A DNA stretch of 63,875 nt, counting the filler, from Collodictyon triciliatum (taxonomy: Eukaryota), in NCBI GenBank assembly GCA_043381765.1. It is 5 parts of 4 records of this genome, joined end to end, with 100 filler letters (N's around TTAATTAATTAA, not from the genome) between each part and the next. Parts side by side here need not be neighbours in the genome. Positions count along the whole stretch, not along the records: positions 42,087 to 55,778 come from JBHJMP010000442.1; 4 more parts are not named here. The stretch is one strand, 5' to 3'. This document shows, in pieces, positions 44,111 to 48,549 of the stretch; positions within the stretch are counted from its first letter, which is position 1, and every line of letters begins with the position of its first letter. The translations under genes and the position numbers were made by a program. The notes beneath the pieces were generated by a model. It was not told where the DNA came from. It did no database searches and was given only the letters and a program-made list of their open reading frames with translations.

Positions 44111-46988
44111 ATGAGTCAAGACTCTGCCGCTGGCAAGCGCGTCCTTGTCCTGGGCGCCGGGATGGTTGTACAGCCGCTGATACGGTACCTGGGCCAACAC
44201 GGCTTCCACCAGACAGTGGCCAGCCGCACGGTGAGCAAGGCGGAGAAGGTGTGTCTGGGCATTGCAAACACGCGCGCGGTGGCCTTCGACATCGAGCGTG
44301 AGGAGGACCAGCCGCTGCTGGAGGAGCTGACGCAGGCGCACGACCTTGTGCTGTCGCTGGTACCGTACATCCACCACGTCAAGGCCGCCCAGGTTGCGCT
44401 GCGCCACGGCAAGCACTTCTGCACGACGTCGTATGTGTCGCCGGCCATGCGTGCGCTGGANNNNNNNNNNNNNNNNNNNNNNNNNNNNNNNNNNNNNNNN
44501 NNNNNNNNNNNNNNNNNNNNNNNNNNNNNNNNNNNNNNNNNNNNNNNNNNNNNNNNNNNNNNNNNNNNNNNNNNNNNNNNNNNNNNNNNNNNNNNNNNNN
44601 NNNNNNNNNNNNNNNNNNNNNNNNNNNNNNNNNNNNNNNNNNNNNNNNNNNNNNNNNNNNNNNNNNNNNNNNNNNNNNNNNNNNNNNNNNNNNNNNNNNN
44701 NNNNNNNNNNNNNNNNNNNNNNNNNNNNNNNNNNNNNNNNNNNNNNNNNNNNNNNNNNNNNNNNNNNNNNNNNNNNNNNNNNNNNNNNNNNNNNNNNNNN
44801 NNNNNNNNNNNNNNNNNNNNNNNNNNNNNNNNNNNNNNNNNNNNNNNNTTCTTTCTTAAATGACCAATTTTTCTTCTCTCTTTTAAAGAAATATTTTTTT
44901 TTTGAAAGTGGATTCTACACTGTGTGTGCGAGAAAGCATATAGGCAGCTGCTGATACTGAATTGAAACCTCACGCTTCAGGTGCACCAGAAGGGTGGCAA
45001 GGTGGTGAGCTTCAAGAGCTTCTGCGGCGGGCTGCCAGCACCGGATGCCAACGACAACCCATTTGGCTACAAACTGTCGTGGTCCCCGCGCGGCGTGTTG
45101 CTTGCCTCACGCAACGATGCACGCTTCTATCGCGAGGGGCAGCTTGTGGAGATCAAAGGGCAGGACCTGTTTGACAACTATGAGCGCTTCGTTGTGCCGG
45201 GCCTGGACGGCACGCTAGATGGCTATCCGAACCGCGACAGCACCACATACTCGGCCTTCTATCGCATCCCGGAAAGCACAACGTGTGTGCGCGGCACTCT
45301 GAGAAACCACGGCTGGTGCAAGACGCTCAAGAAGATGGCCGACCTCGGGCTGCTGTCGCTGGAGCCGCGGATGTTCGAGCCGCAGACGAGCTATGCCGCG
45401 CTGCTCCGCTCCCTGTTGGGTCTGTCAGCCGATGAGCTGGACGTGGCTGGGGCTGCTGCAAAGAAGCTGTCCTTGGAGACGGACGACCATGTCATCAAGA
45501 GCTTCCAGGTAACATGCCTCTTTGAGCGGACGGCGTGTGTGTGTGTGTGTGTGTGTGTGTGTGTGTGTGTGTGTGTGTGTGTGTGTGTGTGTGTGTGTGT
45601 GTGTGTGTNNNNNNNNNNNNNNNNNNNNNNNNNNNNNNNNNNNNNNNNNNNNNNNNNNNNNNNNNNNNNNNNNNNNNNNNNNNNNNNNNNNNNNNNNNNN
45701 NNNNNNNNNNNNNNNNNNNNNNNNNNNNNNNNNNNNNNNNNNNNNNNNNNNNNNNNNNNNNNNNNNNNNNNNNNNNNNNNNNNNNNNNNNNNNNNNNNNN
45801 NNNNNNNNNNNNNNNNNNNNNNNNNNNNNNNNNNNNNNNNNNNNNNNNNNNNNNNNNNNNNNNNNNNNNNNNNNNNNNNNNNNNNNNNNNNNNNNNNNNN
45901 NNNNNNNNNNNNNNNNNNNNNNNNNNNNNNNNNNNNNNNNNNNNNNNNNNNNNNNNNNNNNNNNNNNNNNNNNNNNNNNNNNNNNNNNNNNNNNNNNNNN
46001 NNNNNNNNNNNNNNNNNNNNNNNNNNNNNNNNNNNNNNNNNNNNNNNNNNNNNNNNNNNNNNNNNNNNNNNNNNNNNNNNNNNNNNNNNNNNNNNNNNNN
46101 NNNNNNNNNNNNNNNNNNNNNNNNNNNNNNNNNNNNNNNNNNNNNNNNNNNNNNNNNNNNNNNNNNNNNNNNNNNNNNNNNNNNNNNNNNNNNNNNNNNN
46201 NNNNNNNNNNNNNNNNNNNNNNNNNGTGTGTGTGTGTGTGTGTGTGTGTGTGTGTGTGTGTGTGTGTGTGTGTGTGTGTGTGTGTGTGTGTGTGTGTGTG
46301 TGTGTGTGTGTGTGTGTGTGTTTGCGAATCTAAATGTGAATAGGATGCGAGGCACAGAGCTTACAATCATGATACGCTATGCGGTCTAGTGGATCGGGTT
46401 CTTTGATGAGCAGACATACGTGCCGGAGGGCACAAAGACCGTATTGGATGCCGTCTGCTTCCTCTTTGAGCAGAAGCTTGTCTACAAGGAAGGAGAGCGC
46501 GACATGCTTGTGATGCATCACGAGTTTATCATTGAGTATCCTGAGGTAGGCCATCTAGAAAGGCAGCCATATTTTAATTTTATTTACTTGCAGAGTATGC
46601 TAATTGACGCTGGCGATTGTGTTGGTTGGCGGCGAGTAGAGCGGCAAGAAGGAAAAGCACACCACCACAATGCTCGACTATGGGCTGCAAAACACTGGCG
46701 GGGACTCAAGCATGTCGCGCACCGTGACGCTTCCTCTGGCCATCGCCATCCGTCTGTTTGTGGAAGGCAAGCTCGCAGAGTCTGTGCGCGGCGTGCTCAT
46801 TCCAAACATCCCCGAGGTTGCTTGACATTATCAATATCTTTTCTCCTCCCACTATTTCCACTGAATTACAAGCAATCATCTGAATTCATCCATTCTGCCA
46901 CGATACCAACCGACAGCTCTACGAGCCGATTCTCAAGGAGGTGGAGGAGCTGGGCATCCACTTTGAGGACCACGTGGAGGCGCTCTGA
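44111..46988 (+). CDS. LYS9: Saccharopine dehydrogenase, L-glutamate-forming (saccharopine reductase, Lys9-type); contains gaps
   Basis: KRVLVLGAGMV, SLVPYIHH, TTSYVSPAM, GGKVVSFKSFCGGLPAPDANDNPFGYKLSWSPRGVLLA, YPNRDS, RGTLR, ERDMLVMHHEF, SSMSRTVTLPLAIA, and LYEPILKEVEELGI. Stop TGA at 46986-46988. Confidence 0.95.
45535..46321 (+). repeat. (GT)n microsatellite flanking a gap in a LYS9 intron
   Basis: GT repeats are visible on both sides of the N run. Confidence 0.9.
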
Positions 46989-47202
46989 CAGAACGGACGG
47001 CGAGGATATAGATAAAAACAAAAACAAACACAAACACACGCATGAGAGGCGGTGCATCATCTTCCCTGGGCTGCAACGAAGTGGACAGGCAACAACAGAG
47101 GGCATCGGCAGTGTAAGGCGGGAAGAGTGTTATTAAGACGGACAGAGCGAGAGAGAGAAAAGAGAGGAGAGGGGGAGACAACCGATCGGAGAAAGGGGGC
47201 GT

Positions 47203-48549
47203 CTAGTGCTCGGCGTTGGCCTCTGCAAGCTTAGCAGCAAAGAGGGCGGCGGCGCGGTCCCAGACGGGGCTTCCAGCCGCCAGGGCGAGGAGGTGGGGGA
47301 GGAGGGCGTCGGAGAAGTCGTTGGAGCTCTCGCGGGGGAGGACAGAGGGGAGGTTGTCGATGGCGGTGACGAGGAGGGGCGGGTGGGCGGGGTGGAAGTG
47401 GACGGGGCGGACGGGGCAGACCCAGTCGGTGGGCGCGTCGTAGACGGGGACGGGGTTTGCGGGGTTTGTGCAGTCGCAGCTGACGTCCGAGAGGACCGCG
47501 AGCCGCAGGGGCGCACGTGCAGCCGCCGCGTGCATCTGGGGCAGCGTCAGGAAGGGCGGGACGCGGGCGGAGGGCGCGAGGTAGATTGCGTTGACGACCA
47601 CGTCGTGCGCGAGCAGCTCGTCGAAGGGCCCGCCGCGCGCCGTCTCCGCCACGTCCCACTCGGTCAGCCGCACGCGCACGCGCTCGTCGCCCCCGGCGGC
47701 CACCAGCCGCACCAGCTGCCCGGCCCCGCTGCCGCACCGGCCCTTCGCGCCGATCACGAGCACGCGCGGGGCGTCGTCCTCCTCCTCCTCGTCGTCGCCC
47801 TCCCCCCTGTTCCTCTCCTGCCGCAGCTGCCTCTGCGCGAGGCGCACCTGCCCCTGCACGTGCTCGACCAGCGCCTGCTGCGTCTCGAAGTGGCGCACGG
47901 GCGGGAACGCAGAGGCGGCGTGCAGCACGCGATGCGCCCAGATCAGCAGCCCCAGCGCCGTCCCCACGAAGCCGGCCGGCTGCCCGAAGGCCGCCACGCG
48001 CCGCCCCTGCTCGTCCACAAGGAACTCCAGATCAAGGAGCGTGCCGCCCCCGCCCCCGAAGCGCCGCAGCAGCTCCCGCCACCCGCTCTGCCCCTTGAAG
48101 CAGTGCGCAAAGAAGATGTGCCGCTGCGACACCGCCCCGCCCTCCTCCGGCAGCTCCTTCAGCCCCAGGATGATCCACTCCCTCCCGGCCCCGCTCCAGC
48201 TCCCGCTCGCCGCAAGCCGGCACCCGGCCGCCTCGTACTCCAAGTCCTCGAAGATCCGCTGCTCAGACCGCTCCACCACGATCTCGAACCCCGCTGCAAC
48301 GAGCTTCCTGTTTGGTTTTCGTCCCGCTTCTTTAGTCTTTTTTCTCTTTTTTTTCTCTTTTTTTTTCTCTTTTTTTTCTTTTTTTATCTTTTCGAGGTTG
48401 TTGCTGGAAAACAGAGTAGCTTGCGGTCGGCAAGTCGGTGGGTGGAATGCTTACGCGGCGTTGGTCGGAGTCAGTGGTGTGCGGCGCTCAAAGGGCTTCA
48501 CTTCGTGGCGCAGCCAGAGGCGCACCGGGGTGTTTGTGGGCTGGCTCAT
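47203..48549 (-). CDS. LYS1: Saccharopine dehydrogenase, NAD+, L-lysine-forming (Lys1-type); one intron at 48308-48454
   Basis: LWLRHEVKPFERRTPLTP, IILGLKELP, HIFFAHCFKGQ.GW, GGTLLDLEFL.DEQGRRVAAFG, IGAKGRCGSGA, WDVAETARGGPF, DVSCD.TNP.NP.PVY and IDNLPSVLPRESS are collinear with yeast Lys1. Confidence 0.95.

Follow-up and report, generated by a model that had tools for sequence, protein, structure and literature searches.

The interconversion of aminoadipate semialdehyde, saccharopine and lysine is catalysed by two non-homologous enzymes, and the arrangement of their genes differs among lineages. In fungi, Lys9 (PDB 1e5l, 2axq) and Lys1 (PDB 2q99, 3ugk) are stand-alone proteins, encoded on chromosomes III and I in P. 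chrysogenum (PMC9854754, part of text), and in basidiomycetes Lys9 is fused to spermidine synthase (PMC10051792, part of text). Animals and plants carry the same two chemical steps on one fused, catabolic protein, LKR-SDH (AASS). The lkr-sdh operons of prokaryotes (Roseobacteraceae, Thorarchaeota, Acidobacteriota and others) keep the genes adjacent and unfused, always on one strand and with the LKR/LYS1 gene first; the Roseobacter-type operon is described as catabolic. Rhizarian proteins (Gymnochlora, Nonionella) combine a LYS9 and a fungal-type LYS1 in one polypeptide, in that order, the reverse of AASS. Here we describe a locus in a 63,875-nucleotide stretch (the window) of assembly GCA_043381765.1, deposited as Collodictyon triciliatum, in which a LYS9-type gene (plus strand, TGA at 46988) and a LYS1-type gene (minus strand, TAG at 47203) face each other with 214 bp between their stop codons. 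The pair resembles the fungal genes in its folds, stand-alone form, active-site and cofactor motifs and upstream pathway, but is adjacent; it resembles the prokaryotic operons in being adjacent and unfused, but lies on opposite strands and contains introns; and it differs from AASS and the rhizarian fusions in consisting of two separate genes. The linkage is genuine and probably not accidental, the pair is most likely biosynthetic, and we describe it as a small metabolic cluster of ordinary enzymes: non-homologous enzymes of one pathway are encoded by direct neighbours. The positions of the two genes, their convergent arrangement and the assignment to consecutive pathway steps, all proposed in a first-pass annotation, are borne out by the gene models, by Pfam and PDB matches and by an N-free junction.

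The LYS9-type product, encoded by five exons, is a stand-alone protein with Pfam domains PF03435 and PF16653; its top match among solved structures is a fungal saccharopine reductase (E = 1e-37, against 8e-28 for AASS). The LYS1-type product, 399 amino acids from two exons, carries PF05222 with the AlaDh/PNT fold and matches yeast Lys1 at E = 2e-73 (251 bits) and human AASS at E = 6e-13 (52 bits). Aligned to the yeast enzyme, it retains equivalents of K77, E78, H96, K99, E122, R131, D227 and D319, residues that we take to be catalytic. The cofactor site of LYS9 reads ASRT, compared with ACRT in fungal reductases and GSDM in human AASS; the Arg-Thr after the second strand presumably marks the NADP type, Asp standing there instead in human SDH (the saccharopine dehydrogenase part). 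LYS9 is thus predicted to be a Lys9-type saccharopine reductase (EC 1.5.1.10), and LYS1 an NAD+-dependent, lysine-forming saccharopine dehydrogenase (EC 1.5.1.7). Both genes have their best match in Diphylleia rotans (CRuMs), at 72% for LYS9 and 61% for LYS1 over the models, and the host is probably a freshwater protist related to Diphylleia. Freshwater sequencing runs contain a small share of matches, a hint of habitat only.

Whether the pair makes or degrades lysine had been judged unreadable from the sequence, which proves too cautious. The search for aminoadipate as opposed to diaminopimelate (DAP) enzymes recovered the upstream aminoadipate set, with matches scored exon by exon and below whole-protein cut-offs: homocitrate synthase (HCS) on contig C1793 (top PDB match a fungal-type enzyme, E = 6e-31), homoaconitase (LYS4) on C4715, candidates for homoisocitrate dehydrogenase (HICDH, LYS12) on C7865 and C5393, Lys2 as two complementary halves on C5802 and C6702 (nearest named match Rigifila), and a single PPTase match. 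HCS, aconitase, Lys4, Lys12, Lys2, PPTase, Lys9 and Lys1 are therefore all present in one genome. DapB and DapF gave no match in the one genome searched, which is incomplete, so that their absence is no proof. A DapA-family gene on C79, whose matched pieces score 82 and 75 bits (cut-off 206), is presumably HOGA1-like, and a DAP-decarboxylase-like gene in several pieces on C2477 (7444–9011) possibly salvages bacterial DAP. The genome also holds a separate, intron-rich fused LKR-SDH (AASS) gene on C615 (3140–8994). Based on the upstream enzymes, the lack of DapB and DapF matches, the separate AASS and the NADP-type motif of LYS9, the window pair very probably works in the biosynthetic direction; the simplest reading is that the pair would make lysine and AASS would break it down. 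Of the two homoisocitrate dehydrogenase candidates, the one on C5393 has divergent C-terminal motifs and may be non-catalytic.

Stronger evidence that the linkage is meaningful comes from a second consecutive-step pair in the same genome. On C1793 (8058–14590), a mitochondrial-type aconitase (step 2) lies directly upstream of homocitrate synthase (step 1) on the same strand, with 773 N-free bp between the aconitase stop (8836–8834) and the synthase ATG (8060). This interval contains no tRNA and no recognisable gene; of six frames tested there, five are without a Pfam match, and the sixth gives a sub-threshold match inside the synthase intron. The aconitase has Lys at the mammalian R580 position, where a second aconitase, on C277, has Arg. 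In yeast, K610 of Aco2, compared with R604 of Aco1, marks the homocitrate-dehydrating enzyme, and Aco2 converts homocitrate to homoaconitate, the step next after the synthase (PMC3556520, part of text). If 12,000–25,000 genes are assumed, one specific pair would be adjacent by chance with a probability of about 1e-4, and any of an assumed 500–1000 consecutive-step pairs in 4–15% of genomes, so that the LYS9–LYS1 pair taken alone is no more than suggestive. A second adjacency would arise by chance in 0.05–0.1% of cases among the six other consecutive pairs of the pathway, or in 0.2–0.4% among 27 other pairs. With this second pair the linkage of the pathway genes is probably non-random, given the assumed gene numbers; a co-regulated metabolic cluster, one of the options listed in the first-pass annotation, stays in the lead, and the two pairs together suggest that selection favours the pairing of genes for successive steps of lysine synthesis. 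Contig C8091 holds a partial aconitase gene that is 91% identical to the one on C1793 and represents an allele, a haplotig or a recent paralogue.

We lean toward the interpretation that these are ordinary enzymes of aminoadipate biosynthesis, set in two-gene modules that were built within this lineage and are kept for co-expression. LYS9 would join aminoadipate semialdehyde to glutamate in an NADPH-dependent reaction to give saccharopine, and LYS1 would release lysine from it with NAD+, breakdown being left to the separate fused AASS. Each gene would have its own line of inheritance, a rearrangement would have made them neighbours, and we infer that the pair arose within the lineage. They may then have stayed neighbours because a shared chromatin state steadies their expression ratio, and a steadier ratio would mean less build-up of saccharopine or of the semialdehyde. 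Because steps 1 and 2 are also paired, the pathway appears to be arranged as modules of consecutive steps. In animals, saccharopine has toxic effects on mitochondria (PMC6363459, part of text), and in the fungal GAL1-GAL10-GAL7 cluster, which likewise has neighbouring non-homologous enzymes of consecutive steps and a harmful intermediate, linkage steadies expression ratios in yeast (PMC6785257, part of text). The window pair differs from the GAL cluster in belonging to primary amino-acid synthesis in a protist. By this analogy, noise buffering or toxicity is a tentative and rather doubtful reason for the linkage, and it does not obviously extend to the ACO2–HCS pair: LYS9–LYS1 has a known harmful intermediate in saccharopine, while none is known to us for ACO2–HCS.

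Several observations weigh against a selected, biosynthetic module. The genes converge and have no common promoter; the upstream regions of LYS9 and LYS1 have two nine-letter words in common against about 1.4 expected, and no eight-letter word recurs in at least three of the five upstream regions compared. The genes flanking both pairs are unrelated to lysine synthesis (Myb and SelO; lumazine synthase), LYS4, LYS12 and LYS2 are found elsewhere, on short contigs, and all evidence for the pairs comes from one fragmented assembly of one genome. The chance figures presume random gene order as well as the assumed gene numbers. As to direction, the ASR motif occurs in 181 of the 199 nearest SDH domains, which are mostly prokaryotic and many of which have an LKR-type partner alongside; it is so widespread that the cofactor motif alone is no proof of direction. 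The equivalence of yeast R604 and mammalian R580 is our own assumption, drawn from the offset. The reactions of Lys1 and Lys9 can run either way (PMC9854754, part of text), and in Aspergillus the AcoB proteins, members of the Aco2 subclade, lack activity (PMC3556520, part of text), so that activity of the Lys-type aconitase is not proven. In the LYS1 tree, addition of an LKR outgroup leaves the window gene and its Diphylleia relative without a resolved position at the root. The missing shared promoter and motif and the unrelated flanks would also fit chance adjacency, in which ordinary biosynthetic genes became neighbours to no benefit; so would the 4–15% expectation, given that many windows were scanned, and the lack of LYS9 at fungus-like LYS1 loci described below. 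Against this stand the second pair in the same pathway, with its probability of 0.05–0.4%, and the repeated joining of the same two activities elsewhere, in prokaryotic operons, rhizarian fusions and AASS, and we regard chance as an unlikely explanation.

To place the layout, we examined 241 fetched loci, 154 of which hold both activities; in all 154 the two lie on one strand, and none is convergent. By query, these are 61 of 80 loci for LYS9, 56 of 80 loci plus the single genome locus for LYS1, and 36 of 80 metagenome loci, two of which are fusions. Linked but unfused genes are thus the usual prokaryotic layout and not new as such. The first-pass annotation had called the locus a third arrangement, linked but unfused, and had named prior reports of the layout as a ground for dropping that idea; since the layout is common in prokaryotes, part of the novelty is lost, and what stays unusual is the convergent eukaryotic form. 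No unfused eukaryotic pair was found: LYS9 is present at none of 16 fungus-like LYS1 loci (nine of them at least 7 kb long) and at none of six short, protist-like loci among the 80 from metagenomes. Short exons of HCS, aconitase and HICDH found no match in the 241 related loci, a weak test. LYS9–LYS1 fusions other than AASS (P0153, P0162, L123, L135) occur in Gymnochlora, Nonionella and other records, and there are also bacterial-looking fusions about 750 amino acids long. In the literature searched, with subscription journals mostly outside it, we found no publication on the rhizarian fusions and no report of a eukaryotic LYS1–LYS9 or ACO2–HCS pair or of a CRuMs lysine pathway. A lysine cluster is absent from PMC7826186 (main text and one supplement), from PMC10218983 (main text) and from the searched part of PMC4256263 (main text; 3 of its 14 supplements lay outside the search), and PMC3287585 (part of text) covers only the distribution of lysine pathways.

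The existence of these fusions, together with the reversibility of the reactions, could suggest that the pair is a precursor or a fission product of AASS or of a LYS9–LYS1 fusion, and possibly catabolic; a relation to the AASS fusion had been raised before. We consider this very unlikely. The genes lie on opposite strands, each with its own start and stop, and facing genes can fuse only after an inversion; the genome has its own AASS; LYS1 matches human AASS only weakly; and in the present trees the rhizarian fusions are a separate clade that excludes the window gene, and the two window genes do not both fall within any clade of fusions.

Phylogenetic trees bear on where the genes came from. 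For the LYS9 trees, 38 or 74 rows were selected from 310 domains, and fungal Lys9 and animal and plant AASS were not among them; for the LYS1 trees, built by the quick method only, 70 and 34 rows were selected from 404. The careful LYS9 tree groups the window gene with Diphylleia at 100/100, within a clade of 19 rows that also holds the rhizarian fusions and Thorarchaeota (100/99). In the quick LYS1 tree without the distant outgroup, window and Diphylleia join with an SH-like approximate likelihood ratio test (SH-aLRT) value of 100, and LYS1 is placed among protist sequences, not bacterial ones, at a modest SH-aLRT of 88. After Diphylleia, the named top LYS9 matches are Asgard archaea, whose SDH genes adjoin an LKR-type gene, and Diphylleia LYS9 is 57–59% identical to Thorarchaeota, above what fungal matches suggest. 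An Asgard origin of LYS9 is thus suggested, not established, and is a lead only, because fungal Lys9 and animal and plant AASS are not among the rows of the tree.

These Asgard matches, the frequency of unfused operons (61/80, 56/80 and 1/1, and 34/80 in metagenomes) and the high third-position GC content (GC3) of both genes (0.79 and 0.93) would fit joint horizontal acquisition, with transfer of a whole prokaryotic lkr-sdh operon and later inversion of one gene. The nearest prokaryotic relatives of the two genes differ, however: in prokaryotes with the closest LYS9 (45–57%), the LKR-type partner is only 23–40% like LYS1, and where the closest LYS1 (42–51%) occurs, the accompanying SDH is only 26–38% like LYS9, so that the two cannot be traced to one operon. 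Each gene contains introns and has an orthologue in Diphylleia, LYS1 sits among protists, and a host ankyrin gene also has a GC3 of 0.75. Joint transfer, one of the origins initially considered, is therefore largely refuted by these comparisons, and we give it very little weight.

A different history would see the two pairs as remnants of an ancient whole-pathway cluster that early eukaryotes possessed, that was dispersed in fungi and that survived in part in CRuMs. This could account for both pairs, for the grouping of LYS9 with rhizarian fusions and Thorarchaeota, and for the former same-strand linkage that the rhizarian fusions imply. It could also accommodate a Lys1-like domain that is fused in frame to condensation-domain Lys2 on C5802, with K77, E78, D227 and D319 replaced; related fusions, some truncated at the start, occur in Rigifila and in two further organisms (metagenome proteins). 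Nevertheless, the convergent layout was seen in none of the 154 loci with an operon or fusion, the LYS9 tree has the sampling given above, and micro-synteny is seldom that long-lived, which makes such a remnant improbable. As for the Lys1-like head itself, its being a recent copy of window LYS1 is ruled out by the LYS1 trees.

The two pairs in one pathway provide a clean test of the reasons for metabolic gene clustering, and few clusters for primary amino-acid synthesis have been described from protists. CRuMs branch near the base of the animal–fungal–amoebozoan side of the tree, and the presence of a whole fungal-type lysine pathway in a CRuMs-like protist is relevant to the question of whether it arose before fungi. 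A bolder combination, in which CRuMs conserve the ACO2–HCS and LYS9–LYS1 modules, the Lys1-like head of Lys2 is catalytically inactive and acts as a sensor of lysine or saccharopine, and LYS9 derives from the Asgard host lineage, would make the layout a record of the way in which eukaryotes put together their aminoadipate pathway from components with separate origins; that all of this holds jointly is unlikely.

The locus lies wholly within scaffold C442 (38,444 bases). On the plus strand, the visible part of LYS9 exon 1 (44111..44460; ATG at 44111) encodes a Rossmann fold with the ASRT motif and runs into an N gap (44461–44848). Exon 2 (44981..45508) is joined to exon 3 (46390..46545, also supported by a domain match) in spliced contigs; the intron between them (intron 2, 45509..46389, GT..AG) has a TG microsatellite and contains a second N gap (45609–46225). 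Spliced contigs also support exon 4 (46640..46816) and exon 5 (46917..46988). The two gaps, which the first-pass annotation does not mention, are sized, and about 30 codons are lost there, as estimated from the Diphylleia protein. By direct count the spacer (46989..47202) is 214 bp and N-free, and it contains no tRNA gene. On the minus strand, LYS1 exon 2 (47203..48307), which encodes the predicted NAD+-dependent, lysine-forming dehydrogenase, is assigned by homology and active-site residues; a predicted 147-bp GT..AG intron (48308..48454), outside RNA-contig cover, separates it from exon 1 (48455..48549), which carries the ATG in the gene model. Both models are free of internal stop codons, and GT..AG borders occur at all four introns of the two genes with both ends visible.

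RNA contigs follow the models in part. A 1484-nt contig from run X1 has both short LYS9 introns spliced and spans the second gap, linking exons 2 and 3, and run X4, from another organism of the same study (95–99% alike), shows the same joints; since X1 is possibly source material, it is not independent evidence. The LYS9 contigs reach 47001, where reads are apparently cut at a repeat (47002–47046). On LYS1, X1 contigs cover 47393–48018 and 48082–48300 only, all in exon 2; cover is absent at 47056–47392, and the LYS1 3' end is not seen. LYS1 is likely transcribed, although this is not strictly shown, because the covered stretch includes no LYS1 intron.

An assembly misjoin or contamination might be suspected, as the assembly is fragmented (14,576 contigs), LYS9 has its two gaps, and no contig among four runs bridges the spacer, the DNA runs X3 and X5 giving short pieces only; moreover, contigs C8039 and C11170 look bacterial (30% GC, with an intron-free nonribosomal peptide synthetase). 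This is extremely unlikely as an explanation, since LYS9 exons 3–5 and the whole of LYS1 lie in a single ungapped stretch (46226–51497) of unique sequence save for the short repeat, spliceosomal introns occur in each gene, the best matches of the two come from one organism, and pathway neighbours would hardly be produced twice at random. The window as a whole consists of several contigs joined by linkers (14036–14135, 23535–23634, 41987–42086 and 55779–55878), N runs that flank a 12-base six-frame stop; a portion of C442 is omitted from the window at 41987–42086.

The neighbouring genes are functionally unrelated to the pair. Next along C1793 from the aconitase–synthase pair are lumazine synthase and an LRR gene. 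Upstream of the pair are an AspRS and a Myb gene; the former is a class II tRNA synthetase (window 36900–41700) that we take to be aspartyl, not lysyl, by its motifs. Downstream, SelO (window 49000–53500) lies head-to-head with LYS1 at a distance of about 500–600 bp, so that LYS1 may share a promoter region with SelO.

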